NCBI GenBank assembly: GCA_019744845.1 | Contig: JAIETW010000001.1 | Span: 354,859 to 418,858, forward strand | Reading direction: 5' to 3' | From: Patescibacteria group bacterium | GTDB lineage: Bacteria; Patescibacteriota; Minisyncoccia; Phycocordibacterales; Phycocordibacteraceae | DNA: 64,000 nt | Shown: in pieces, positions 4,968-31,790 of the stretch | Numbering within the stretch: the first letter of the stretch is position 1 | Layout: the number at the start of each line of letters is the position of its first letter | Program-made: the position numbers and the translations under genes | Notes under the pieces: generated by a model | The model's database searches: none | The model's input: the letters and a program-made list of their open reading frames with translations, nothing else | What the model was told of the DNA's origin: nothing

Positions 4968-5054
4968 GGAGACGTGGCTGAGTGGTCGAAAGCGCCTCAC
5001 TGCTAACGAGGTAGGGTGTAAAAGCTCTCCAGGGTTCGAATCCCTGCGTCTCCG
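4968..5054 (+). tRNA. tRNA-Ser (anticodon GCU), type II with a long variable arm
   Basis: Acceptor stem ggagacg pairs with cgtctcc. Anticodon loop is cuGCUaa, there is a long variable arm, and T-arm cagggTTCGAATccctg. CCA is not encoded. Confidence 0.85.
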
Positions 5055-5056
5055 CA

Positions 5057-5851
5057 CTATTCTGGTTTTTTAAGCACAAATACATCTACCTGATTGTCTG
5101 GATTGACTGGGGAGGAGAAGTTAAAGAGTGAGTGCTCCAGTACTTCAAATCCAGATGCATCAAGAAGTGCCTGTACGTCCTCTATATTTTCAAAATACAT
5201 CTGTTCACCTAGTTGCCGTATGTCGGTATCTGGTGTGCCGTCATCTTTCACACAGGCAGTGTAATCAAGCACCTGCACCGTAAAGGTTTTAGACCCTTCA
5301 GGAGTTTCAATGGTATAGGGCTTCTCCGTGATCACTCCACCATGGGTCGTGTAGTAATCGTAGAACGCTTTATTGTGAGGATTACTAAACACACGGAAGT
5401 TAAGTGCTGCTTCCCCGCCTGGTTTGAGCGCACCGTACATCGTCTTCAGCATGTCCGCAGGAACATAGATCATCGCGTTCACGAGCATGCCCATCTCCAC
5501 AATGTTATCGGCAAGGACTGACTTGCTAGCATCCATGGCAAACAAATGCGCCTGCGGGAGTCGTGCCTGCACTTGCGGCAAGATGTCGGGCGAGATATCG
5601 CTCGCAAACAAGATAACGTCAGGGTCATTCGTAAAGAACTCAAGTTCAAATGCAGGACCACACGCAACGTCGAGCACGCCAATCGGAGTGCCAAACTTCT
5701 GCTTCAAGCGCTCAAGCATCGGCTTGTGGAATTGATCAAAATATTCGGGACTTTTGGCAGGAGTATTGATCTTGGCCGCATACTGCTGCTCACCCATGGA
5801 GGCGTAGTAACTGGATCCTGAACCCACAATCTCTGGTCCTTCTTTTGTCAT
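5057..5851 (-). CDS. Class I SAM-dependent methyltransferase
   Basis: Motif I VLDVACGPA with a Rossmann-fold arrangement. Confidence 0.65.
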   Translation of the reverse strand: MTKEGPEIVGSGSSYYASMGEQQYAAKINTPAKSPEYFDQFHKPMLERLKQKFGTPIGVLDVACGPAFELEFFTNDPDVILFASDISPDILPQVQARLPQAHLFAMDASKSVLADNIVEMGMLVNAMIYVPADMLKTMYGALKPGGEAALNFRVFSNPHNKAFYDYYTTHGGVITEKPYTIETPEGSKTFTVQVLDYTACVKDDGTPDTDIRQLGEQMYFENIEDVQALLDASGFEVLEHSLFNFSSPVNPDNQVDVFVLKKPE

Positions 5852-6531
5852 GCGCCAATTGTAGCAGGCGCATTCCGGGCGTCCACGATTCGGAAGGTGT
5901 CCCCTTTCACCACAATGTATTGATAGTCATTGAGTGGAATCGGAGTGCAGTCTTCTGAGTATGCGCGCGGGAGTCGCTCAGTAAAATAAATCGCACGAGA
6001 CCTTTCAGAACCCCAATGCGGCAGCACAATGAACGGAACGAGGTTAAGCGCTGCGTACCCTTCTATATTCGGTGCATGCGCTTCCATATCAGAACGATGC
6101 GCGGCACTAATCTCTGGTGCGGCAACAATCGCACCTGCACTCTGACCTATATATATCTTTCCTGCCCGCACATGCTCCTGGGCAAAAGGAATGAGTCCGC
6201 TTTGCTGCATTTGCTGAAGGAGATACAGCACATTTCCTCCTGCAACATATAGTATGTCTAGATTCTTTAGATCCTCTCTAAGCTCGGTGGATGTTTTTCC
6301 CGAGATCGTATATTCAAAGGTGTCCCATCCTGGAAGAGCCTGTAACGCCGCAAGATCAGCGTGAAGCCAGCCCTTCTCCTTCTCTACCTCCGCACCTGTG
6401 GTAATGAGTGCGACACGATAGGCCCCTGGTCCCACGTCCTTCGTAAGTACGTCAGCCACCTGCGCGGTAGAAGACGTGAGATACAGCGGGCCATTCATTG
6501 TCTTGAAGTATACCTGACCACCCACATACAA
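5848..6531 (-). CDS. Peptidase S51 family (dipeptidase E / cyanophycinase-like)
   Basis: ILYVAGGNVLYLL and IYIGQSAGAIV motifs are typical of S51 (PepE). A likely internal start is MNGPLYL. Confidence 0.55.
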   Translation of the reverse strand: MYVGGQVYFKTMNGPLYLTSSTAQVADVLTKDVGPGAYRVALITTGAEVEKEKGWLHADLAALQALPGWDTFEYTISGKTSTELREDLKNLDILYVAGGNVLYLLQQMQQSGLIPFAQEHVRAGKIYIGQSAGAIVAAPEISAAHRSDMEAHAPNIEGYAALNLVPFIVLPHWGSERSRAIYFTERLPRAYSEDCTPIPLNDYQYIVVKGDTFRIVDARNAPATIGA

Positions 6532-10217: not shown

Positions 10218-11480
10218 TTAAAGTGCCTTCTGACCAATGTCAGAGCGGTACTGTGCACCCTCAAAGGAAATCTTCTTCACTCCCGCATATGCGGCATCAA
10301 GTGCCATAGAAAGGGTCTCTCCTGTTGCGGTCACGTTAAGCACACGGCCACCGTTGGTGAGTATGTCGTCACGATCGCGCTTGGTGCCCGCATGGAAGAC
10401 CACCACGCTTCCTTCTTCTGCATCTGTAAGGCCCGTGATCACCTTTCCTTTTTCGTAGGAGCCTGGGTACCCGCCCGACGCCATCGACACACAGGCAACG
10501 GAATCCGTACCCCAGGAAAGAAACACATCTTTCAAGTCTCCTTTTGCAGATGCGAGAAGCACCGGCACAATATCGCTATCAAGCAGGCGCATATACGCCT
10601 GTGTCTCAGGGTCCCCAAAGCGAGCATTAAACTCAATGACCTTTGGACCATCGGTGGTCAACATGATGCCGGGATACAAAAGACCTGAGAATGGCCGCCC
10701 CTTCTTCTCTAGTGCAGAGAGAAGTGGAAGTACGATCTCATCTCGTACCTGATCCATGACCTCTGAGGATACCTGTGCGAGTGGCGCAACGACACCCATC
10801 CCTCCAGTGTTTGGCCCCTCATCATTATCAAATATCCTCTTATGATCCTGTGAGGACGGAAACATGAGTGCTTTAGTGCCTGCGCAAATGGCATGTGTAG
10901 AAAACTCAAGGCCGCTCATAAACTCCTCAATCACCACTTCATTTCCTGAGGTACCAAACTTTGCATCCACAAAACATTCCTTCAGTGCATCTTCTGCTTC
11001 CTGATGCGTGTACGCAATCGTGACCCCCTTTCCAAGCGCAAGACCACTTGCCTTCACCACAATCGGAAGAGTCTGTTCTTTTACATACGCAACGGCTGAA
11101 TCAAAGTCAGTAAAGGTTTCGCTTGCTGCAGTCGGAATGCCTGCCTCTTTCATGATCCCTTTGGCATATGCTTTAGACCACTCAACCTCTGCTGCTGCTT
11201 TGGTAGGACCAAACGCAAGGATATTTTCTGCGTGAAGTGCATCTACAATTCCACCTGCAAGTAAGTCATCAGGGCCCACCACCACAAGTTCAATGTCTCG
11301 CTCTTTCACTGCCGCAATAACGGCCGTGTGATCGTTTGGATCAATCGGGAGATTCTCCCCTACCTCACTACTCCCTCCATTACCCGACGCGATGTATACC
11401 TTCTCTACGAGCGGAGACTGCGCAATCTTCCATGCAAGTGCGTGTTCTCTTCCGCCAGATCCAAGGACAAGAATGTTCAT
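10218..11480 (-). CDS. purD: Phosphoribosylamine--glycine ligase
   Basis: MNILVLGSGGREHALAWKIAQS N-terminus. ATP-grasp fold, 420 aa. Confidence 0.9.
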   Translation of the reverse strand: MNILVLGSGGREHALAWKIAQSPLVEKVYIASGNGGSSEVGENLPIDPNDHTAVIAAVKERDIELVVVGPDDLLAGGIVDALHAENILAFGPTKAAAEVEWSKAYAKGIMKEAGIPTAASETFTDFDSAVAYVKEQTLPIVVKASGLALGKGVTIAYTHQEAEDALKECFVDAKFGTSGNEVVIEEFMSGLEFSTHAICAGTKALMFPSSQDHKRIFDNDEGPNTGGMGVVAPLAQVSSEVMDQVRDEIVLPLLSALEKKGRPFSGLLYPGIMLTTDGPKVIEFNARFGDPETQAYMRLLDSDIVPVLLASAKGDLKDVFLSWGTDSVACVSMASGGYPGSYEKGKVITGLTDAEEGSVVVFHAGTKRDRDDILTNGGRVLNVTATGETLSMALDAAYAGVKKISFEGAQYRSDIGQKAL

Positions 11481-18780: not shown

Positions 18781-18853
18781 CCACCCGTAGCTCAGTTGGT
18801 TAGAGCACGGAGCTTATACCTCCGGGGTCCTTGGTTCGAGTCCAAGCGGGTGG
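18781..18853 (+). tRNA. tRNA-Ile with anticodon UAU (reads AUA)
   Basis: Acceptor stem ccacccg pairs with cgggtgg, D-arm tagctcagttggttagagca, anticodon stem cggag/ctccg with loop cuUAUac, T-arm cttggTTCGAGTccaag, discriminator A. CCA is not encoded. Confidence 0.75.
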
Positions 18854-18854
18854 A

Positions 18855-20783
18855 CTAAGAAGGAAGTTCGTCGTCTTTGGTCTTTGGTGTAATACCGTTC
18901 AGCACAAGGAGTTTCTCAAACTCTTCGCGCTCAAGCGTCTCTACTTCCACCAATTTCTCGCTCATCATATCAAGCGCCTTGCGGTGCTTCACGAGTACGT
19001 CGCGCGCTTTCTCCTTTGCTTCGTCAATGATGCGTGCCACTTCTCCATCAATCTTGGAAGCGACATCCTGGGAGTAGGCAACTTCTCCTGTGCGATCGTT
19101 TGCAAAGGCAACAGGACCGAGCTTATCGCTCATGCCATAGCGAGACACCATGTCGCGTGCAAGCGCGGTCGCCACTGAGAGATCGTTGTGTGGCCCAGTG
19201 GTGATGTCATCAAACACCATCTCTTCTGCGACATACCCTCCAAGTGTTCCTGCAATGTCATCAAGGAACTGCTTCTTGGACTGCATCTTCTTATCTTCAA
19301 ATGGAAGCTTAAGGGTGTACCCTGCAGCGCGGCCACGACTGATAATAGACACCTTATGCACTGGATCCGCGTACGGAAGGATAGAACCAACCAATGCATG
19401 TCCCATCTCATGGTATGCAGTGACACGCTTCTCACGTACGGAAAGCAAATGGCTCTTGCGTTCAGGACCAAGCATCACCTTTTCAATGGAGCGAATGAGA
19501 TCGTACTGAGTAATTTCTTTACGAGTCTCGCGTGCCGCAAGAATGGCGCCCTCGTTCATAAGTGAGTAGAGCTCTGCACCGGAAAAGCCTGGAGTGCGCT
19601 CTGCAATCACTTCAAGATTCACATCTGCACCAAGTGGCTTCTTACGTGCATGGGTCTTCAAGATCTCTACACGATCTTTACGATCAGGAAGGTCAATGGT
19701 GACACGACGGTCAAAGCGTCCAGGGCGAAGGAGGGCAGGGTCAAGCACGTCTGGGCGGTTCGTCGCCGCCATGACAATCACCTTCTCGGTTGGCTCAAAG
19801 CCGTCCATCTCCACAAGGATCTGGTTTAGGGTCTGCTCACGCTCATCATTCCCTCCTCCAGTGCCAGTACCACGTACACGACCGACGGCATCAATTTCAT
19901 CTACGAAAATAATCGCTGGCGCAGAGCGCTTCGCAAGCTGGAAGAGATCACGTACACGGGACGCGCCCACTCCTACAAACATTTCTACGAACTCAGAGCC
20001 AGAAATGGAGAAGAACGGAACGCCTGCCTCTCCTGCGACTGCACGTGCGAGCAAAGTCTTTCCGGTACCAGGAGCCCCCATGAGCAAAATACCTTTTGGA
20101 ATACGTGCACCAATATCAAGGAACTTCTTTGGGTTCTTAAGGAAGTCCACAATCTCTAGAAGCTCTTCCTTTGCTTCTTTGGCACCTGCGACATCAGCAA
20201 AGGTGACGCGCTGATTCTGATCTGAGGGATCAATCATGCGTGCCTTGCTCTGACCAAAGGTGAATGCCTGCATACCGGCACCCTTCACCTGACGTGCAAG
20301 GAACCAGAAGAGCACGGCAAGGAAGAGAATTGGAATTGCAATAGGAAGAAGCGTGACGAGCCAGAAGCGCCAGCCGGTTTCTCCAGTAACGGTAATAGCG
20401 ACTGCAGACATCTCTTGCGGTGCGACGCCATATGCCGCAAGTGTCTCTGGAAGACCCGCCTCAGGACTCTTCATTGACTCCTTCTCTGTTCCATCAGCGT
20501 AGGTAATAGTAAGAGTGTCGCCTGCAACGGTGATTCCTGTCACCAGCCCTGCCTTCACGTCGTTTGCGACCTGAGAAAGCGCAATTTCCTTATCTTCCTG
20601 ATTGGATCCAGTGATGAGTGAGTAGATACTCATCAAAATAAGGAACACCAAAATCGTGGAAAGGAGATTCCCCGCAAAACTTGGGCGTCCACTGGACGGC
20701 AAAAGACCCTTCCCTCCCTTCATGCGAGGAGTGGTCTTCCGTCCTTTCTTTCCGGACGGCGTTGGTTTACCCTGAGGCGCCAT
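18855..20783 (-). CDS. ftsH: ATP-dependent zinc metalloprotease FtsH
   Basis: Two N-terminal TM helices, AAA+ Walker A GPPGTGKT and Walker [13 protein letters not shown], and the zinc site HEMGHAL. Start chosen at MAPQGKP (cat at 20781-20783). The longer ORF to 21005 would overlap smpB. Confidence 0.9.
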
Positions 20784-20817
20784 AGTAAAAGACACTATAC
20801 AATAGAGGGAGTCGTTT

Positions 20818-21270
20818 ATGAAACAAGACACGCTGCTTATAGAGAACAAGAAGGCACGAATGCGCTTTACCGTCCTTGAGACTTTCTCAGCCGGTATAGA
20901 ACTTTCTGGTGCCGAAGCAAAGTCCCTTCGTAGTAAGCAGGGGTCTCTTGATGGTGCGCGCGTGATCGTACGTGGCGGAGAGGCATACCTAGTCGGTATG
21001 ACCATTCCTCCCTACCAAACAGGCAACACGCCAGTGAGCTATGACCCTGAACGGACGCGCCGGCTCCTCCTCACCAAGAAAGAAATTGCCGAGATGTCTG
21101 ATATTGAATCCATGAAGGGCTTGACAATTGTGCCAATTGATGTTTATAATAATAGGTACATTAAAGTCCGCGTCGCGATTGTGCGCGGCAAAGGCAAGGC
21201 TGACAGACGTGAGGATCTCAAACGTCAGGAAGCAAAGAAGGATATCGCCCGCGCACTCAAGCGCCGCTAG
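20818..21270 (+). CDS. smpB: SsrA-binding protein SmpB
   Basis: 150 aa. LIENKKARMRFTVLETFSAGIELSGAEAKSLR and a basic C-terminal tail. It lies immediately upstream of tmRNA. Confidence 0.9.
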   Translation: MKQDTLLIENKKARMRFTVLETFSAGIELSGAEAKSLRSKQGSLDGARVIVRGGEAYLVGMTIPPYQTGNTPVSYDPERTRRLLLTKKEIAEMSDIESMKGLTIVPIDVYNNRYIKVRVAIVRGKGKADRREDLKRQEAKKDIARALKRR

Positions 21271-21310
21271 GAAACTCCCGGAAAGTGCGTTCTGGTAGAA
21301 TGCTTTCTCC

Positions 21311-21714
21311 GGGGGTGACCGGCTTTGACGGTCTGCTCTTTGACACACGTGCGACGCGGTGGAAGTTTGTTGACCACCTTAATCTCGCAAACAACCAAAC
21401 TTGCCAAGAACACTCTTGCAAGCGTGAAGTCACCATTTACTATGGCTGACTTCCCGTTCGCTTACGCGCGCGCTTAACTGCGTCTTCGCCTAAGCGACAT
21501 CTGACTGGCTCAGTTCTCGTAGTGTCCAGTTCAGGTGGAATCATCTATGAGATCGGTGCGCGTCCTCCCGAGCGCGTTTCCTAAATAAGGGATCAGGTAG
21601 GAGTGGTTTCGTTCTGATTCCTCGCACCCTACCCTAGTACGTAATCAGAACTATGCGTCGTAGATTCGTTGTTTAAGACAGATTCGGACGGGAGTTCAAC
21701 TCTCCCCACCTCCA
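21311..21714 (+). ncRNA. ssrA: tmRNA (ssrA), standard one-piece form
   Basis: The 5' end GGGGGUGA pairs with the 3' CACCUCC-A, giving an acceptor stem with a G3:U70 alanine identity pair. The 3' T-arm is gggagTTCAACTctccc. An internal tag-like reading frame ends ...gct tac gcg cgc gct taa followed by a helix. Adjacent to smpB. CCA is not encoded. Confidence 0.85.
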
Positions 21715-21763
21715 CAGAACAGAAAACCGCCCATGAGGCGGTTTTCTAATCACTTCTTGGCAA
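21706..21763. repeat. Left copy of an imperfect direct repeat (58 nt; tmRNA 3' end + terminator + 'AKK-stop' gene end)
   Basis: ccacctccacagaacagaaaaccgcccatgaggcggttttctaatcacttcttggcaa. Compare with 23281-23332. Confidence 0.7.
21724..21748. terminator. Bidirectional intrinsic terminator (ccgcc-catga-ggcgg + ttttct) shared by ssrA and the convergent methyltransferase gene
   Basis: Hairpin flanked by agaaaa upstream and ttttct downstream. Confidence 0.65.
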
Positions 21764-22469
21764 CGTAGCTGGCTTCCAGTTGGTATCGATATACGCGCTT
21801 AATATCTCGAAACCCGAGTGCTTCTAGATCTTTGATATATTCTCTTTCATATAAAATAACTTCCGGCTTCTCGTCTTCGTAGTAATGCGTAGTCCACCTT
21901 TCTTTTAAATCTGACCTTCCTTCGGTGTCGAAAATATCAAATCGTTTTATTTGCCACTCAAGAGCTGCTTGATGTTCCGATTCATTATCTGAAGCGTATT
22001 TATCGACATTGATAAACAGACCGTCGGGCTTCAAGACACGGAAGATTTCTGCATAGACCTCCTTTCGATATTCATTTGGACAGTTGTGCAGTACAAGCGC
22101 CGATAGAACTGCATCGAGAGAGCCAGCTGGCTGTTCTTGTAGACATTCAAGTGCATCTGCATGCACAAACTCTACTCTACTTTCTTGTTTGTTTTTAAAG
22201 CGATATTTAGCTTGTTCAACTATAGATTCGACATTATCGAGAGCAAGCAGAGATATTCGCTTATCTGCGTCAAGGATAATATCGCTTGTTAAGCCGGTGC
22301 CGCAGCCAATCTCAAGCATCGCGAGGCTTTGTGTATTTGAACCTCTAAAGTGGCTTTGAATTGCTATAGCTATCGTTTGTTGCGCCTCATCATAATGTGG
22401 AGCTGCTAAGCGAAAGATCCTATCCTCTTCCACATCTGCGCTATAACGAGCTGCGATATCTGAACTCAT
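21750..22469 (-). CDS. Class I SAM-dependent methyltransferase
   Basis: Motif I LEIGCGTGLTS; motif II/III region FVHADALE ... LKPDGLFI. Confidence 0.7.
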   Translation of the reverse strand: MSSDIAARYSADVEEDRIFRLAAPHYDEAQQTIAIAIQSHFRGSNTQSLAMLEIGCGTGLTSDIILDADKRISLLALDNVESIVEQAKYRFKNKQESRVEFVHADALECLQEQPAGSLDAVLSALVLHNCPNEYRKEVYAEIFRVLKPDGLFINVDKYASDNESEHQAALEWQIKRFDIFDTEGRSDLKERWTTHYYEDEKPEVILYEREYIKDLEALGFRDIKRVYRYQLEASYVAKK

Positions 22470-23191
22470 AGGATTGGGGCGAATTCGTAGATAAGATCTT
22501 TTATTTGAGCTTCCTTACCCGGCTCAAGAGGACGATCCATTTCCCGTACTAATTTTAGTGCATATCCATTGTCCTTCGCTATTTCAGCAATGGTCGGCAG
22601 GTCAGCACTATCCCCTGTTCCTAAGAGCAACTTCCCTTCAGACGTTAGGTGGTCGTGTGCGCCCGCTACATACGCCCGCAGGCTTTCGTACCCCTGGTCG
22701 AGCCCTGAACGCAAAAGCATGTCGTCTGCTGGAACGTCCCAGTTATTGAATGGATGAGCCCAGAATATAAAGTCGAACTTTTCGCCAGCTTTAAGTGCAT
22801 TGTAGACATCACCTTCTCGTACCGAGACATCCAACTTGTGTCGCTCAGCATTTGTCTGTGCATTTTTTACGGCATCTGGATTAATGTCCGTAGCCACTAC
22901 TTGGGCACCGTTCATAGCACAAAAGACTGCTATCACTCCAGTACCAGTTCCTACTTCGAGTAGTGACTTATTTCCTACAATCTCCTGCAGAGCGTTTGCA
23001 TACCAGAGGCTGTCATCAAAAAACTCAGGAGCATATACGTTTGGAAATACCGTGAGGGGTATCCCTCCGTACTCAATCTCATACGGTTTATCTGCCTTTG
23101 CTCGCATGCGAGCGTAGATATCGTATATCTGCTGTCGCCAACCTTCGCGCTCAGTAGGAGTAAATATACGCGTTGGCACTTCCTTACTCAT
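22466..23191 (-). CDS. SAM-dependent methyltransferase, 'small domain' (RsmC/PrmC-like N-methyltransferase) with a variant AHPF motif IV
   Basis: LEVGTGTGVIAV motif I. FDFIFWAHPFNN occupies the position of the (N/D)PP(F/Y) motif. 4 nt overlap with the upstream methyltransferase. Confidence 0.6.
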   Translation of the reverse strand: MSKEVPTRIFTPTEREGWRQQIYDIYARMRAKADKPYEIEYGGIPLTVFPNVYAPEFFDDSLWYANALQEIVGNKSLLEVGTGTGVIAVFCAMNGAQVVATDINPDAVKNAQTNAERHKLDVSVREGDVYNALKAGEKFDFIFWAHPFNNWDVPADDMLLRSGLDQGYESLRAYVAGAHDHLTSEGKLLLGTGDSADLPTIAEIAKDNGYALKLVREMDRPLEPGKEAQIKDLIYEFAPIL

Positions 23192-23280
23192 GAGGATATT
23201 TTACTCTATTCCCATGCATCTACTACTTTGAGGAAATGCAGGTCTCTGCACTCTAATAGCGAGGTTCTAACTTCAGATAG

Positions 23281-23332
23281 CCACCTCCACAGAAACAAAA
23301 ACCGCCCTCAAGGCGGTTTTACTTCTTCGCAA
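23281..23332. repeat. Right copy of the imperfect direct repeat (tmRNA-3'-end-like ccacctccaca + terminator + 'AKK-stop' gene end)
   Basis: ccacctccacagaaacaaaaaccgccctcaaggcggttttacttcttcgcaa. The preceding 20 nt (gaggttctaacttcagatag) also resemble the tmRNA T-loop region (gggagttcaactctcc). Confidence 0.7.
23296..23320. terminator. Intrinsic terminator hairpin (ccgcc-ctcaa-ggcgg + tttta) 3' of the response-regulator gene
   Basis: Near-identical duplicate of the ssrA terminator. Confidence 0.55.
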
Positions 23333-23693
23333 GCGCAATCACCTTCTCCACCACTTGCTTCGGATCAAAGTCGCTCTTGATCACATAGTCCGCCGCACCA
23401 AGGGAAAGTCCCTTACGCTTGTTCTCATCCCCTGAGAGATTCGTAAGGAGCATCACTGGAATATCTTTGAGCTCAGGATTCTTCTTCACCTCTTCAAGTA
23501 CTTCAAAACCGCTCTTCTTCGGCATCATGATATCAAGCACAATCACTGCCGGCTTCGGATTCATGCTCGCAAGCTTAGTGAGCGCTTCTTCCCCATCCTG
23601 CGCTACTTCAAGAGTGTGCCCGCCGAGCGTAAATACCCGCTCGTACATACGGTACATGAACTTATCGTCTTCCGCGATAAAGAAGTGAGCCAT
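23319..23693 (-). CDS. Single-domain response regulator (CheY-like receiver only)
   Basis: 124 aa. Acidic pocket EDD, phospho-acceptor Asp in VLDIMMP, and a conserved Lys (AADYVIKS). Confidence 0.8.
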   Translation of the reverse strand: MAHFFIAEDDKFMYRMYERVFTLGGHTLEVAQDGEEALTKLASMNPKPAVIVLDIMMPKKSGFEVLEEVKKNPELKDIPVMLLTNLSGDENKRKGLSLGAADYVIKSDFDPKQVVEKVIALAKK

Positions 23694-23705
23694 GCAAAAA
23701 GGATA

Positions 23706-25904
23706 TCACGTCACCGGAAGGGTGAAGGAGAAGGTACTGCCCCTCCCGAGCGTACTTTCCTCAAGTACGACCGCCCCACCCATCGCATTCATAAGGAGCT
23801 TGGAAATATAGAGGCCAAGGCCCGTGGACTGGGAATTATCGCGCGCAAGAAGATCTTCACTTGCTTGCTGAAACTTACGGAAGAGGTTTGCCTGATTCTG
23901 TTCAGAAATACCAATACCCGTATCCGTCACCTTTACCTTTACGCGCGTTCCATCGCTCTCCACCGCGATGGTCACCCCGCCCTGGTGTGTAAACTTGATA
24001 GCATTCCCAATCAGGTTCTCAAGCACCTCTTCCGTACGGTCACGATCACCCATCACGAGTGGAATGGGTGACGATTCAAAGGAAAGCGTAATGCCCTTCT
24101 GGCTCGCAAGCTCCGTAAGTGTGCGCACGACTTCAGAAATCACCTCGGAAAGATCAAACGGCTGACGTTGTATCTCTATCTTGCCTTGTTCAAGACGTGA
24201 AATCTGAAGGAAGTCGTTCACGATGGAAATCAAACGACCACTTGAGGCATTAATATCTTCAAGCATGCCACGCATCGCAGGGTCATTGAGTTTATCCTTA
24301 TACGTATCAAGGAGCAGGTCCGTGTTCCCACGAATGGCAGTCAGCGGAGTACGAAGTTCGTGCGAGGCAATGGAGAAGAATTCCTCACGACTACGCTGAA
24401 TTACCTTTGCTTCGGTAGTGTCCTCAATAAGGAGCACCAAGCCAATCACCGTTCCGGTCGCCTGAGGACTATCCGCTTCGGCAAAGATAGGCGCACACAG
24501 CACGCGAAGGAACATATTCCCATAAGAAATATCTGACTTCTCAGATGGCACCTGTCGCTCAAGCGAGTCATTACAGAACTTCATCAGATCAAAGGTGGCA
24601 CCAAATGCGTTCGCAATGTCTTGGATCTTTCCTGGCTCCTCACGCAATTTCATAATGCGTGAAAGGGATGGGTTTTTCAGAAGAATGCCACTATCCACGC
24701 CCGCAATCACGAATCCGAACGCAAGACTGTTAATAGACGCAAGAAGACGTGCTTTCTCTTCCGCAAGTTCTTTCGTACGTACCTTCACCATGTCCTCGGC
24801 CTTATCTTTCCCATGCTTCACCTCTTCAAGAAGCACCCGCGTCTTCTCACGCGATTCGGAAAGCCAGGAAAGCATCTGATTAATTTGGTCGGCAAGTTTT
24901 CCGAGCTCATCTTTGACGCCTCCCCGCACACGCATGGAGATATCCTGCACATCATTAATATGATCCACATCTTTTGCGAGCTTCACAAAACGCGTAATCA
25001 CCAGCCGCTCAAGTAAGAAGACGATCACCATCCCGAATAGGATCAGTGCCACAGCGCTCGTGGCCATAAACACATACAAAGTAACGACTCCCTGGGTATA
25101 AATAGGACGTGGAGTCTCCACTCGGACAATAAGTGCAGGCTCTCCGTCAACGCCCGCAAGGGTGGTGTAGCCCACAATGGCGTACGCAGACGTCGGTACA
25201 ATTACTTCCGTCGCTCCTGCTTCTATCTGACTGCGCGCATCACGAACCTCAGTTGGGAGCCCCGCAGACTCATACGCAAATGCCGTCACCTCAAGGTGTG
25301 TGATCTCTGCGATCTTTCTGATTTTTTGTTCATTCAAATACCGTGCAAAGGTAAGAGACCCAGTACTTGGCCCCTCGCCGAGACTAGTCTTGAGTGGGAG
25401 CGACACGACAATCGCCGGACCAGCAGGAAGAAGCGCAATTCCCTGCGTCGCATGGTCAAGGGACTCATGCATGATGAGTTCTGGGTGTTGATTAAAGTAC
25501 GCCTCCATCGTTGAAGAGGCGACTTCAATGCGCTCAGTAATGTCCACGACCATAATACGGAACACTTTCCCTTCCGTATCTGCCCAGACCATGGCATTGA
25601 TATCAAGGTTGGAAAGGCCGGTCGCGTAGATTGTTTCCTCCGCCCACGCTGGATCCATAGTGTCGGCAAACTCATACGCCTCATCCCATGACGCCCAATC
25701 CGAGAGCTTGATCATTTGCTGGCTCTCAAACTCTTTGATGGCGTCAGTGGCACGGCGGAGATCTTCCCGCATCGCTTCGTGCTCAATGGTGAGATAGCTT
25801 GAGAGAAGCACCTGTGTGGAGATGAAGTAGACCGCAAACGAAAGCGCGACGACGCTGGCGATAAGGGTAAGGAGAATTTTTGACCGGACTGACAGGGGCT
25901 TCAT
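23706..25904 (-). CDS. Sensor histidine kinase (two TM helices with an extracytoplasmic sensor region, HisKA + HATPase_c)
   Basis: H-box FFSIASHELRTPLTAIRGN, N box LENLIGNAIKFT and G boxes DTGIGI / GLGLYISK. Start chosen at MKPLSV. An alternative upstream ATG at 25946 would add 14 aa. Confidence 0.8.
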   Translation of the reverse strand: MKPLSVRSKILLTLIASVVALSFAVYFISTQVLLSSYLTIEHEAMREDLRRATDAIKEFESQQMIKLSDWASWDEAYEFADTMDPAWAEETIYATGLSNLDINAMVWADTEGKVFRIMVVDITERIEVASSTMEAYFNQHPELIMHESLDHATQGIALLPAGPAIVVSLPLKTSLGEGPSTGSLTFARYLNEQKIRKIAEITHLEVTAFAYESAGLPTEVRDARSQIEAGATEVIVPTSAYAIVGYTTLAGVDGEPALIVRVETPRPIYTQGVVTLYVFMATSAVALILFGMVIVFLLERLVITRFVKLAKDVDHINDVQDISMRVRGGVKDELGKLADQINQMLSWLSESREKTRVLLEEVKHGKDKAEDMVKVRTKELAEEKARLLASINSLAFGFVIAGVDSGILLKNPSLSRIMKLREEPGKIQDIANAFGATFDLMKFCNDSLERQVPSEKSDISYGNMFLRVLCAPIFAEADSPQATGTVIGLVLLIEDTTEAKVIQRSREEFFSIASHELRTPLTAIRGNTDLLLDTYKDKLNDPAMRGMLEDINASSGRLISIVNDFLQISRLEQGKIEIQRQPFDLSEVISEVVRTLTELASQKGITLSFESSPIPLVMGDRDRTEEVLENLIGNAIKFTHQGGVTIAVESDGTRVKVKVTDTGIGISEQNQANLFRKFQQASEDLLARDNSQSTGLGLYISKLLMNAMGGAVVLEESTLGRGSTFSFTLPVT

Positions 25905-26033
25905 ATGAGGAAAGTACTGGTACTGATTGTACCTCTTTATATACATCCCAAACGCAGGGTTTCCCCATCCTCATGAATCCTTCATCCTTATTCATATACG
26001 GTACACCTGCACTTACTAAGTAACCGATACTGT

Positions 26034-30430: not shown

Positions 30431-30460
30431 CAAAAGCCCCCAATTGGGGGCTTTTTTGTT
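30431..30460. terminator. Bidirectional intrinsic terminator (agccccc-aatt-gggggct + tttttgtt)
   Basis: Perfect 7 bp stem after rplT. Also 3' of the convergent 30459 gene. Confidence 0.7.
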
Positions 30461-31157
30461 ACTCCGCCAAAAGTCGTGCGCTTCCTGAGACTACCCGTGG
30501 CACACTTGGATCAGTAGGAATCGTTGGGTACCCCACAAAGATACTGCCAAGAAGCACGTACTTCATGTCTCCACAGAAGTTACCAATATATTGAAGTCCC
30601 CTGCTTGTAGCGTATTTCTCGGTGAGAAATGCACGCCACACTGTTTCATCAAATCCAAGCTGATAGTATGTCACCCCGTCGGCTTCCCAGCTATTGAGCG
30701 TACAGATGTTACGAATCTGAGTGCGCTCTTCCTCATCCCATCCTCCCCGAAATGCTTCTAGATTCTGTTCAATAGAAAGACCAGGAGAATAGTATTTAAG
30801 ATCAAGGAAGTGATGGAGGTCATCCCCTGCATCCCAATAGTAGATACTATCTCCTACATAATCTATTTTTACCGACTCAGATAGGAGTGTCTTGATGTCA
30901 CTGTACCGCTCAAGACGAAACGCAAGCTTGTAGTTTGAGTACGGATATATATTGAGCACTACATCAAGTACAGTGTGGTGTGGAATATAGGGTTCCGTCA
31001 CCTCTGAACGAGTCTCTACTTCTACCTCCTCTATCGTTGCGATGCTGTTCTTCTCAAGGTAGGTTTTAACGTACGGATACGACTGATACCCTGCCCCACC
31101 AATCAATACGAGAGCAACTATGAGTATGAGGATGTTCTTCATACCGCAAGTATACAC
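30459..31157 (-). CDS. Hypothetical membrane-anchored protein (Tyr/Trp-rich ectodomain)
   Basis: N-terminal TM helix (NILILIVALVLIGGAGY). Part of a lower-GC block. Confidence 0.4.
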   Translation of the reverse strand: MYTCGMKNILILIVALVLIGGAGYQSYPYVKTYLEKNSIATIEEVEVETRSEVTEPYIPHHTVLDVVLNIYPYSNYKLAFRLERYSDIKTLLSESVKIDYVGDSIYYWDAGDDLHHFLDLKYYSPGLSIEQNLEAFRGGWDEEERTQIRNICTLNSWEADGVTYYQLGFDETVWRAFLTEKYATSRGLQYIGNFCGDMKYVLLGSIFVGYPTIPTDPSVPRVVSGSARLLAE

Positions 31158-31160
31158 CTG

Positions 31161-31790
31161 CTAAGATGCAGCTTTCTCTACGCGCCACACTCGCCCAAAC
31201 TCACACCAGTTCTTCTTCACCAGTGCCCGAAGAAGGCGGAAGTAGTGCACGTCATCGCGTACCCGCTCATACGCAAGTCCTGGGACGGTAAGCGTATCAA
31301 GTACGTAGAGATATTCTTCGTCGTATCCGTATACAAACATCACATGATCAAAGAGCACAAACTGCGTTTTGGAAATCGGGATATCAATCGCTGTTGCGAC
31401 GTTGTTTTGAATCTGCATCTCAAGCATCCCCATCGCCTTCTCATAGGAGAGACGAGAGAAAAGAAGCTGATACATGAGATCAAAGTACGATGATACTTTC
31501 TTGTCATTGATATACAGCGCAAGTCCATGCTTCTTCAGGAATGCGGGTGCATGAAAGAACTGAGTCTGCGTCCAGGCAAGATATTTCGGCACAGGAGTTC
31601 CGAAGAGTTTTTGACAATCAATCTCTTGTGGATTTATTGCACTCGGGTTGAACGTCTCAGGATAATAGAAGTTCAAACAGTAGTAGAGGAAATCACGCTG
31701 ACACTTGAAGTGAAGTTGCTTTCCGTTACGGGATTCTCGCTCTACAAATCCCATTGAATCTAGAGGACGCTTGAGGGTGACCGTACTCAT
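31161..31790 (-). CDS. Hypothetical protein, possibly a papain-like (C39/BtrH-like) cysteine peptidase fold
   Basis: Candidate Cys (FKCQRDFLYYCLNFYY) and His (FDHVMFVYGYDEEYLYVLD) arranged as in C39-like peptidases. Weak. Confidence 0.3.
   Translation of the reverse strand: MSTVTLKRPLDSMGFVERESRNGKQLHFKCQRDFLYYCLNFYYPETFNPSAINPQEIDCQKLFGTPVPKYLAWTQTQFFHAPAFLKKHGLALYINDKKVSSYFDLMYQLLFSRLSYEKAMGMLEMQIQNNVATAIDIPISKTQFVLFDHVMFVYGYDEEYLYVLDTLTVPGLAYERVRDDVHYFRLLRALVKKNWCEFGRVWRVEKAAS

Follow-up and report, generated by a model that had tools for sequence, protein, structure and literature searches.

A methyltransferase gene pair behind the tmRNA gene of a Patescibacteria bacterium and its probable place in a family of integrase-less gene cassettes

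Directly downstream of the tmRNA gene (ssrA) in the stretch of DNA analysed here (64,000 nucleotides, hereafter the window) lie two methyltransferase genes, enclosed by a direct repeat of the end of ssrA. To which kind of element do they belong, and how did it come to this position? According to the preliminary description, made from the sequence alone, they would be an island at the ssrA 3' end that lacks an integrase or has decayed, or else a mobilisable cassette, and the empty site found in the closest available genome (L001) supports this proposal. The features of the locus are as follows, with the strand in brackets.

20818-21270 (+): smpB, conserved left neighbour of ssrA (Pfam SmpB, 1.3e-41; 96% protein identity to L001)
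21311-21717 (+): ssrA, the tmRNA gene, intact (Rfam RF00023)
21706-21719 (+): attL core (CCACCTCCACAGAA), the tmRNA acceptor 3' strand plus AGAA, identical to 23281-23294
21716-21749 (+): left arm of the proposed cassette, a shortened type-1 L arm (AGAAC) followed by its own hairpin terminator (stem 21723-21745)
21750-22469 (-): MT_A, 239 aa, class I SAM methyltransferase of the UbiE/Methyltransf_25/11 type (Pfam)
22466-23191 (-): MT_B, 241 aa, MTS/HemK-like N-methyltransferase fold (PF05175, 7e-13)
23212-23290 (+): R arm, the 79-nt conserved right end of the proposed cassette, closing in CCACCTCCAC (nhmmer 64 bits, E about 1e-17)
23281-23294 (+): attR core (CCACCTCCACAGAA), where native DNA restarts
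23298-23320 (+): displaced native ssrA terminator hairpin, matching the single terminator of L001 (terminator scan)
23319-23693 (-): response regulator, native right flank (Pfam; 98% protein identity to L001)
23706-25946 (-): CHASE4 histidine kinase, native right flank (Pfam; 91% protein identity to L001)

A precise insertion at the end of ssrA

The tmRNA gene was missed by ARAGORN in the 64-kb window, although Rfam detects it: RF00023 matches at 21311-21717 on the plus strand over the full model (1-374) with 92.7 bits. Its tag frame, located by eye at about 21403-21477, reads AKNTLASVKSPFTMADFPFAYARA followed by a stop. The conserved ssrA sequence stops at 21715 with CCACCTCCAC, and the insertion begins exactly behind this last conserved nucleotide, which bears out the proposed location. 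In L001, whose neighbouring genes show about 90% DNA identity to those of the window (98% protein identity for FtsH, besides the values listed above), ssrA is 95% identical over positions 1-406, with the final 49 nt identical. There the order is smpB, ssrA, terminator and response regulator with nothing inserted, the response regulator and the CHASE4 histidine kinase coming directly after ssrA. L001 is thus a clean empty site. It matches the window collinearly as far as 21745 and then again from 23281 (blastn breakpoints), and both breakpoints fall on one and the same 38-nt segment of L001, the single copy at 10892-10929 that matches both repeat copies. The right repeat had been taken to mark the original junction of tmRNA, terminator and response regulator, and the empty site supports this. 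The hairpin at 23298-23320 is also positioned to terminate the convergent response-regulator gene.

The direct repeat (21706-21745 and 23281-23320) covers 40 nt at 85% identity without gaps, and the pattern CCACCTCCACAGAA-N3-AAAACCGCC-N5-GGCGGTTTT occurs exactly twice in the 64 kb, against 0 expected from 100 shuffles. The repeat reported in the preliminary description is therefore real, but its length of about 55 nt was overstated, as the real core measures 5-14 nt. Over three island copies the core common to attL and attR ranges from TCCAC up to CCACCTCCACAGAA, being reduced to ACCTCCAC in L081 and to TCCAC in L082. Two parts of the longer repeat have other explanations. The hairpin AAAACCGCC...GGCGGTTTT is the common ssrA terminator type of this clade, to which the likeness between the two copies is due. 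The shared AKK-stop codons are a coincidence, because MT_A ends in SYVAKK-stop in three islands whose far flanks differ, and ALAKK-stop closes the response regulator of the empty-site genome too. The inserted segment corresponds to 21716-23290 (1,575 bp), its boundary being ambiguous inside the 14-nt core. As had been noticed, the stretch between the repeats is AT-rich: GC is 0.448 at 21746-23280 versus a mean of 0.511 (sd 0.021) for 1,535-nt windows, none of which is lower, and GC3 is 0.354 for MT_A and 0.434 for MT_B versus 0.50-0.61 in the adjacent genes.

The pair was found at ssrA in two further genomes. MT_B, MT_A and the R arm follow directly 3' of ssrA in L081, where the far flank is an ABC transporter, and in L082, where it consists of Cu-oxidase and other genes. 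Both have the same ends as the window, and no genome shows the pair at this position without repeats. Among 80 species-level loci fetched around smpB, no further carrier was seen. The island genes of the window and those of L081 show 82-86% DNA identity, versus 77% for ftsH and 74% for smpB, and this excess over housekeeping genes, with the deviant GC and GC3, would speak for horizontal transfer of the island. Could the pair instead be ancestral here, the empty site of L001 having arisen by a later precise deletion between the 40-nt repeats? Deletion across 14-nt perfect repeats is mechanistically easy, and the more distant relative L081 also carries the pair at ssrA. However, such a history is very improbable: the island genes exceed ftsH and smpB in identity (74-77% for the latter two), their GC3 of 0.35-0.43 departs from that of the neighbours, none of the 80 smpB loci has the pair, the far flanks differ among the three carriers, and the repeats and the R arm require an original insertion anyway.

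Elsewhere in the window, genes for a methyltransferase and an S51 peptidase come after a tRNA-Ser gene (4968-5055). A flanking repeat is absent there, and a second island at this tRNA gene was rejected.

The methyltransferase pair

MT_A and MT_B overlap by 4 nt and are both class I SAM methyltransferases according to Pfam, in agreement with the two overlapping genes first described. No sigma-70 promoter match for the operon was found on the minus strand. MT_A belongs to a rare family, with 13 homologues found; its matches to NCBIfam all remain below cut-off and its closest PDB matches are uncharacterised methyltransferases. For MT_B, the assignment to the MTS "small domain" type with an AHPF motif was right, given the PF05175 match and an alignment of 25 homologues in which HPF is invariant. 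The motif, FIFW[A/S/N]HPFNN, stands where NPPY is expected. The AF2 model of MT_B (pLDDT 93) has a Rossmann methyltransferase fold and an N-terminal helical region as in PrmC/HemK. Its top Foldseek matches are the carbamoyl N-methyltransferase Asc-Orf2, PrmC, GenN, N6AMT1 and RsmC, and its best PDB matches by sequence and fold are PrmC/HemK-related amide/amine N-methyltransferases. We nevertheless rejected the identification of MT_B as a PrmC/HemK release-factor glutamine methyltransferase. Every score against the NCBIfam models HemK2, PrmC and PRK14968 falls far under the cut-off, the TIGR03534 score is 62 bits for a cut-off of 199, TM-scores reach only about 0.6-0.7, and the catalytic NPPY is replaced by an invariant [A/S/N]HPF.

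The nearest folds to MT_B are N-methyltransferases of amides, amines, proteins and rRNA, including aminoglycoside N-methyltransferases, and none of the 50 Foldseek PDB matches listed for it is described as a DNA methyltransferase. By fold or motif, the two enzymes are not DNA methylases. The best reading of the cargo, as predicted from sequence and model, would be an N-methyltransferase-fold enzyme together with a small-molecule-type methyltransferase rather than a restriction-modification or defence module.

The latter possibility, a DNA-modification or anti-phage defence module, had been suggested at the outset and deserves consideration. Both proteins are matched by PADLOC to mad2 (2e-22 and 6e-14). 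Defence-like genes also occur in or next to other islands with the R arm: L122 has a C5 DNA methylase together with an Eco47II-type endonuclease, L103 has another C5 DNA methylase, and an OLD/AriA-like ATPase is found as well. The pair is a conserved operon in other chromosomal contexts as well, and in one of them (L126) MT_B-MT_A directly adjoins a restriction-modification gene pair (N6_N4_Mtase and RE_EcoO109I). However, the mad2 matches extend only over positions 287-424 of 492, the generic SAM-binding domain; MT_B lacks a target-recognition domain and lies nearest in fold to protein, rRNA and aminoglycoside N-methyltransferases, its NPPY is replaced by the invariant HPF, and the island in the window contains no nuclease or ATPase partner. 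In another context (L125) the pair lies beside a serine hydrolase and a tRNA-binding protein. A defence role for this cargo thus seems hardly probable.

Units with a common right arm and the question of the recombinase

An nhmmer profile of the R arm finds 16 copies across 9 loci, and the length is exactly 79 nt in 15 of the 16 copies of this first set. The profile also matches 23 of 31 metagenome loci at E <= 1e-6, these loci having been fetched with a degenerate pattern derived from the R arm. An invariant block, GGTTCTAAC, lies at 23263-23271. The sequence GAGGTTCTAAC, previously regarded as a degenerate T-loop and a sign of decay, is instead the best-conserved block of this fixed-length 79-nt element. 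In all R-arm loci that contain ssrA (14/14), the arms share its strand and are located downstream. In three loci (L103, L110, L122) 4-9 kb of sequence precede the R arm and contain no ssrA, meaning either that islands can be larger or that the arm also occurs elsewhere. We also considered a structured RNA or pseudo-tRNA arm and rejected it: RNAalifold predicts no pairs in the consensus of 14 copies, and the apparent T-stem is without covariation.

At the other end, left junctions always fall immediately behind CCAC, and in many cassettes the core is followed by an L arm of type 1 (CGATATAGAACTATATGGAAAC...) or type 2. The left arm of the window was delimited by aligning it with the corresponding ends in L081 and L082. 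Its hairpin, folded within the reconstructed junction of R-arm end and left arm, reaches -15.4 kcal/mol (z = -5.9). By its position it would serve ssrA and, convergently, MT_A. The window copy may be immobile now, because its L arm lacks most of the type-1 motif. Between such ends lie unrelated genes. The 24 fully bounded cassettes measure 419-7,517 nt (median about 1.1 kb) and occur up to three per array; arrays of two or three are present in L008, L019, L024 and L119, and the window holds a single unit. Their cargo, in either orientation, includes an APH kinase (aminoglycoside-phosphotransferase family), TrmB, an M23 peptidase, a cytochrome-d1 protein, another methyltransferase and OLD/AriA-like ATPases. 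The C5 DNA methylases and the Eco47II-type endonuclease lie upstream of R arms whose ssrA-proximal boundary is outside the fetched DNA.

None of these units carries a recombinase. By phmmer and tblastn with E. coli XerD (Pfam 9e-60) and gamma-delta resolvase as queries, both validated with Pfam, none was found in the window or in any cassette; this search took in the whole 64-kb window and loci no longer than about 20 kb. The 3,329 ORFs of the window and of 122 loci contain no XerD-like protein, and this set covers 10 kb to each side of smpB in the 80 related loci. A motif regex gave no tyrosine recombinase near the site, and no recombinase appeared in Pfam scans of 20 larger cassette or flanking proteins or of ten unexplained ORFs of the window. 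The integrase-less nature first proposed for the island is supported: only the two methyltransferase genes lie inside it, and neither an integrase of its own nor any XerD-like or resolvase-like match in the window was detected.

We consider, with a probability of about 0.6, that 21716-23290 is a foreign, non-autonomous integrative gene cassette that was moved in trans. As part of this explanation, it would be one of a family in Paceibacteria/Kaiserbacteria-type Patescibacteria whose members consist of a short L arm with a terminator, 0-3 unrelated genes and the same R arm. We infer a circular intermediate and a trans-acting enzyme. The circular form of the cassette would carry a site composed of the R arm, TCCAC and the L arm, and a site-specific recombinase supplied in trans would recombine the circle with the ssrA 3' end, the crossover falling in or beside TCCAC. 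In this way ssrA would remain intact, the cassette terminator would replace the displaced native one, and repeated insertions would stack cassettes.

The only candidates for such an enzyme that we have seen are large serine recombinases (LSRs) that target ssrA. In L020, L069 and L071 their genes abut the 3' end of ssrA and overlap with it, as do those of all three further homologues sampled, and in sister genomes LSR elements use the same insertion point as the cassettes. In L135 an LSR element, which ends in a different arm (R2), stands in tandem with an R-arm cassette. The internal junction shows two separate elements, and a single LSR island ending in the R arm was rejected there. A helper phage or plasmid carrying the R-core-L arrangement was rejected likewise, the IMG/VR pattern matches being due to chance. 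Two DNA-pattern scans of these viral contigs gave 5 loci, none of the 3 right-arm matches fits the R-arm profile, and the sole checkable left-arm match (L123) fits neither the R-arm nor the tmRNA profile. A scan of IMG/VR for LSR proteins gave only matches of 15-17 residues. Neither an excised circle nor a molecule with attP alone was observed.

Sister genomes contain LSR elements at this very nucleotide whose recombinase gene lies on the ssrA side, where it could be deleted, and this might also mean that the island is a decayed remnant. A classical ssrA island with an integrase would then have shed this gene and most others by deletion, so that attL, attR and two cargo genes remain, without mobility or any cassette design. 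The shortened type-1 L arm of the window is in line with this. Such decay is nonetheless unlikely as the origin: the 24 fully bounded cassettes all lack a recombinase and, apart from the antisense-tmRNA tail, show no detectable trace of an LSR, random deletions would not yield left junctions that are all precisely behind CCAC with conserved L arms and terminators, and the LSR element of L135 closes in the R2 arm.

A further explanation dispenses with a site-specific recombinase. In this homology-facilitated illegitimate recombination, DNA taken up from a relative would have been joined by homologous recombination in the conserved ssrA on the left and through microhomology at CCACCTCCAC, where the R arm ends, on the right, and homologous recombination between R arms would then reshuffle the arrays. 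Natural competence may be presumed for these bacteria, the identity of ssrA among their genomes is 83-95% and the gene offers a 400-nt anchor, the highly alike 79-nt R arms could be a second anchor in cassette-bearing genomes, and the core shared at the right junction is short (5-14 nt). This explanation is rather improbable, as it leaves unexplained the fixed 79-nt arm and conserved L arms around unrelated cargo, the same nucleotide at every junction, and the most conserved R-arm block (GGTTCTAAC), which lies beyond the microhomology.

Relation to known mobile elements and possible significance

Islands at tmRNA genes are textbook knowledge, and classical islands at tRNA or tmRNA genes have their own integrase beside the att site and usually measure several kb or more. 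The window resembles them in that an intact tmRNA gene, a direct repeat of the target end and an empty site in L001 are all found. The cassettes share with classical ssrA islands the target (the ssrA 3' end), a gene kept intact, a copy of the 3' end on the far side, foreign composition, an empty site in a relative and tandem arrays. In contrast, they have no integrase, a size of 0.4-7.5 kb, a core of 5-14 nt and a 79-nt arm shared despite unrelated cargo. The identity blocks of classical islands are usually tens of nucleotides long, a figure of about 40 nt being given in bioRxiv 10.1101/2020.12.28.424599.

Three other kinds of element invite comparison. CIMEs have lost integration and transfer genes and kept intact attL and attR (PMC6323972). 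The cassettes are likewise flanked by att sites, contain no recombination or transfer genes and can lie in tandem with a recombinase element, as in L135. However, CIMEs share their att sites with a mobilising cognate ICE, whereas the neighbouring LSR element of L135 has the R2 arm and no cognate helper was identified. Tycheposons and their remnants, found in islands of Prochlorococcus, also belong to streamlined genomes, use tRNA and tmRNA hotspots, integrate successively with partial tRNA copies in between and carry small adaptive cargo. All 937 elements described have an integrase (a tyrosine recombinase in 910, an LSR in the rest) and many have replication genes (bioRxiv 10.1101/2020.12.28.424599), whereas the cassettes have neither and possess a dedicated conserved arm in place of a mere partial copy of the target gene. 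With integron cassettes they have in common small units of 0-3 genes without recombinase, a recombination-site-like end, head-to-tail stacking at one fixed chromosomal point, and related cassettes or R-arm-adjacent cargo rich in resistance-like and defence-like genes. They differ in that no IntI-type tyrosine recombinase lies by the array and none that is XerD-like within 10 kb of smpB in 80 loci, that genes occur in both orientations and that the platform is an RNA gene. Moreover, neither the R arm nor the junctions between R and L arms show an attC-like folded structure. These junctions fold no better than shuffles (z from -0.5 to -1.7), and a single-stranded folded site was rejected on this basis; over them there is weak dyad symmetry, which peaks at 9 of 18 informative positions (offset 4).

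A full-text literature search for tmRNA islands or cassettes in Patescibacteria/CPR returned nothing relevant, and the cassette family found no match in these comparisons or in the literature searched. Since tmRNA-gene islands are textbook knowledge, the single island taken alone is ordinary. The family of cassettes, placed singly or in arrays at one nucleotide of ssrA in many uncultured Patescibacteria, appears to be so far undescribed.

By analogy, and tentatively, the ssrA 3' end of Paceibacteria-type Patescibacteria may be an integron-like gene-capture platform based on a 79-nt double-stranded arm and a terminator of its own, in which a recombinase encoded elsewhere, perhaps one of the abundant ssrA-targeting LSRs, would insert, stack and exchange cassettes. 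If so, bacteria with very small genomes would obtain genes for resistance, defence and modification through this platform. The short target at the ssrA end and the compact arms may be of interest for the engineering of site-specific integration, and the R arm may serve as a simple sequence tag to harvest the accessory genes of these bacteria from metagenomes. Should a recombinase acting in trans move the cassettes, genes would have a path by which to spread within a phylum whose mobile elements have been little characterised.

The ssrA locus and its empty site

The source of the window is an uncultured member of the Patescibacteria, of Paceibacteria/Kaiserbacteria type; the nearest loci are MAGs so named. 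The gene order is ftsH (-), smpB (+), ssrA, two methyltransferase genes (-), response regulator (-) and CHASE4 histidine kinase (-).

20818-21270 (+), smpB
21311-21717, ssrA (tmRNA gene), Rfam RF00023, whole model, 92.7 bits
21750-22469 (-), MT_A, methyltransferase gene of the island
22466-23191 (-), MT_B, methyltransferase gene of the island
23319-23693 (-), response regulator
23706-25946 (-), CHASE4 histidine kinase

The conserved ssrA end is ...GGGAGTTCAACTCTCCCCACCTCCAC, with its last base at 21715. Despite the Rfam match, ARAGORN did not call the tmRNA at 21311-21717 in the window; it called the ssrA orthologues in L020, L059 and L071 (L numbers designate loci fetched from related genomes or metagenomes). 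By eye, the tag reading frame of the window tmRNA would be AKNTLASVKSPFTMADFPFAYARA*. The longest ftsH ORF (716 aa, 18855-21005, -) shares 188 nt with smpB. Its L081 orthologue has a called length of 641 aa, and the true ftsH start in the window is therefore probably further downstream. A tRNA-Ile with anticodon UAU (TAT), an unusual way for bacteria to decode AUA, adjoins ftsH at 18781-18855 and is also present in L020, L059 and L071.

The direct repeats at the ssrA 3′ end, flanking low-GC DNA with two methyltransferase genes, are real. The copies at 21706-21745 and 23281-23320 align over 40 nt without gaps at 85% identity. The pattern formed by a 14-nt perfect core, CCACCTCCACAGAA, and the hairpin stems was found exactly twice in 64 kb, with 0 expected from 100 shuffles. 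Between the copies (21746-23280) the GC content is 0.448, the lowest of all 1.5-kb stretches in the window (mean 0.511, sd 0.021), and GC3 is 0.35 and 0.43 in the two island genes versus 0.50-0.61 in neighbour genes. The second-lowest GC patch (about 0.45, 30459-31790) holds two minus-strand ORFs of 232 and 209 aa, neither of which has a Pfam match. At 4968-6531, tRNA-Ser(GCU) has a methyltransferase (5057-5851, -) immediately behind it and then an S51 peptidase (5848-6531). No direct repeat of the tRNA end was found to flank this locus, so nothing points to an island there.

An SmpB scan with one genome per species gave 80 loci. The closest, L001 (JBBTSU010000015.1), shares 98% protein identity in FtsH, 96% in SmpB and 98% in the response regulator. 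There the terminator and the response-regulator gene come straight after ssrA, with nothing inserted. By blastn, window 18855-21745 is collinear with L001 8038-10929 (90.8%) and window 23281-25985 with L001 10892-13594 (83.8%). The two blocks overlap in L001, so that the 38 nt at 10892-10929 align to both window repeat copies. An empty site in a related genome was the check put forward in the preliminary description, and it came out positive: the right copy marks the original junction, the left one having arrived with the insert. The relatives that come next in closeness carry other genes over about 3.1-3.3 kb between ssrA and the response regulator (L002 10900-14040 and L003 4890-8200), by eye two TspO, a cupin and a YkuD-like gene in L002, and HAD-like, kinase-like, GIY-YIG and ABC-F genes in L003. 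The right arm described below was not detected in these two intervals; the interval is variable even outside the cassette family.

A family of cassettes sharing a 79-nt right arm

The three methyltransferase islands (window, L081 and L082) have homologous right ends, and the motif GGTTCTAAC, again with the ssrA end behind it, recurs downstream of ssrA in other SmpB loci. An nhmmer profile defines an R arm (conserved right end); 15 of the 16 copies measure exactly 79 nt, and the consensus is CCAgTCATCCaCCACnCGTAGGAAATATGAGGAGCTGcTTtGCATCAGCGArGTTCTAACCTgGATAACCAnnTCCAC. It is present in the window, in L081 and L082, and in six of the 80 species-level loci (L004, L008, L019, L024, L034 and L080). 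Of these, L008, L019, L024 and L034 belong to the MAGs JAZKAU01, JBDSUM01, JAQBRG01 and CAXUAR01, respectively. One degenerate-pattern scan of JGI/ENA metagenome contigs yielded 31 loci, 23 of which match the full R-arm profile at E <= 1e-6; none of three IMG/VR pattern matches fits it. Every R arm lies downstream of ssrA on the same strand in all 14 loci holding both.

The first reading of the repeat needs several corrections. The preliminary description had proposed copies of about 55 nt; two copies do exist, 40 nt long at 85%, but they are composite, and only 5-14 nt are common to attL and attR in the three methyltransferase islands. The two hairpins are alike because both are of a terminator type common after ssrA in the clade. 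The shared AKK-stop is a chance resemblance: SYVAKK* ends MT_A in each of the three islands, and ALAKK* ends the response regulator in the empty-site genome L001. What had been taken for a degenerate T-loop forms no covarying stem; no block of the R arm is better conserved.

With the ssrA end and successive R-arm ends as boundaries, 24 closed units were delimited. They measure 419-7,517 nt (median about 1.1 kb), are stacked up to three and carry 0-3 genes each, in either orientation. Their cargo genes are mutually unrelated and include an APH-family kinase, a TrmB regulator, an M23 peptidase, a cytochrome-d1/b5 protein, another methyltransferase, a weak LAGLIDADG-like protein and an OLD/AriA-like ATPase (PADLOC AriAB, 3e-19). 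The latter is one partner of a 178-aa protein (MKLYRFSPVTTHADLLEA...) that has no Pfam or PADLOC match and is found in three ssrA cassettes, with different neighbours each time:

L019 4650-6679
L024 11013-12981
L107 371-2416 (ssrA-oriented coordinates)

This protein with its changing partner looks like a variable two-gene defence-type module. Upstream of the R arms of L103 and L122 are C5 DNA methylases and an Eco47II-type endonuclease, the ssrA-proximal boundary lying outside the fetched DNA.

After each core (the ssrA-end sequence common to attL and attR), the next unit starts with a short L arm (left end) and a hairpin terminator. Many units share an L arm of type 1 (CGATATAGAACTATATGGAAACATATAGAACATTAG...) or type 2 (CGACTATGCTCATTTTGAGCATAC...); that of the window (AGAAC AGAAAACCGCC...) is a shortened type 1. 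Because the R arms end CCAnnTCCAC with variable middle bases, the exchange has to take place within TCCAC or directly behind it.

Recombinases at the same site

No recombinase was found in the cassettes, the 64-kb window or the R-arm loci, the large serine recombinase (LSR) of L135 belonging to a separate tandem unit. A motif regular expression, as well as phmmer and tblastn with XerD and gamma-delta resolvase (both queries confirmed by Pfam), detected none in the cassettes or window, nor did Pfam on 20 cargo or flanking proteins. The resolvase query revealed LSRs with Resolvase, Recombinase and Zn-ribbon domains in other loci:

L020 11131-12777 (-), LSR gene
L069 10804-12384 (-), LSR gene
L071 10876-12531 (-), LSR gene
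also L133, L135 and L137-L139

All are transcribed convergently to ssrA and extend about 75-80 nt into its 3′ end, so that the last 25 or so LSR residues are encoded antisense to tmRNA. With a cut-off of E <= 1e-20 the family counts at least 1,864 proteins, and three of three further homologues, picked solely by the length of their contigs, adjoin ssrA-smpB-ftsH. LSR elements targeting the ssrA end are thus common in the phylum and use the same nucleotide for insertion as the cassettes. The C-terminal part of another LSR (L059 27-824) reads towards the 3′ end of a tRNA-Ser(GGA) gene with GGTTCTAAC in between, which suggests that related recombinases also target tRNA genes.

In L135 an LSR element stands in tandem with an R-arm cassette; their internal junction marks them as separate units, of which the LSR element terminates in another arm, R2. 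The LSRs are therefore only candidate helpers for R-arm cassettes. Neither the R arm nor the reconstructed R|L junctions fold, which argues for a putative double-stranded protein-binding site, unlike attC. The mechanism by which the cassettes would move is one that we infer.

R2 is a second conserved right-arm family:

L048 10955-11130 (+)
L007 3806-3894
also L045, L050, L015, L097, L110, L111 and L135/L136

One unit in L048, about 170 nt long and located behind the ssrA terminator, opens with the ssrA 3′ end in inverted orientation (GTGGAGGTGGAG) and closes with ...CAUCUCCAC. Its fold has a free energy of -90.9 kcal/mol (z = -7.9) and a closing helix of 11 bp, and it matches no Rfam family. 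The unit may represent a structured RNA, or else a recombination site that folds.

The methyltransferase cargo and the place of the cassettes among known systems

MT_A is of the UbiE/Methyltransf_25 type and belongs to a rare family with 13 homologues. MT_B adopts the MTS/HemK fold (AF2 model, pLDDT 93), its nearest structures being carbamoyl N-methyltransferase, PrmC, the gentamicin N-methyltransferase GenN, N6AMT1/KMT9 and RsmC (TM about 0.6-0.7). It scores below every NCBIfam cut-off, and an invariant FIFW[A/S/N]HPFNN replaces NPPY. PADLOC returned only generic SAM-domain overlap for the methyltransferases. Our inference for the island cargo is an N-methyltransferase that would modify amides or amines of a small molecule or protein, alongside a second methyltransferase, and not a DNA methylase.

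MT_B has hundreds of homologues. The two closest (87% and 81%) are on contigs with MT_B-MT_A immediately 3′ of ssrA (L081 and L082). On the far side the two contigs are not alike, with an ABC transporter in L081 and a Cu-oxidase then further genes in L082. DNA identity between the window and L081 is 82-86% in the island genes, versus 77% in ftsH and 74% in smpB. The island is therefore more recent than the divergence of the two genomes and was transferred horizontally. The remoter homologues of MT_B (66-72%) lie away from ssrA, and MT_B-MT_A operons with 55-60% identity occur in ordinary chromosomal contexts (L125 and L126), directly adjoining a restriction-modification gene pair in L126. The cassette has captured a pre-existing two-gene module.

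The observation at the ssrA 3′ end is confirmed, and its interpretation as an integrase-less or decayed island, or a mobilisable cassette, is supported. Att-flanked, without integrase and located at ssrA, the island is like a CIME; taken alone, it is a further member of the already known att-flanked integrase-less ssrA islands. The cassette family takes an intermediate place among tRNA/tmRNA islands, CIMEs, tycheposon remnants and integron cassettes. What is new is that cassettes lacking a recombinase, but with a 79-nt arm of their own, form arrays at the 3′ end of ssrA in Patescibacteria.
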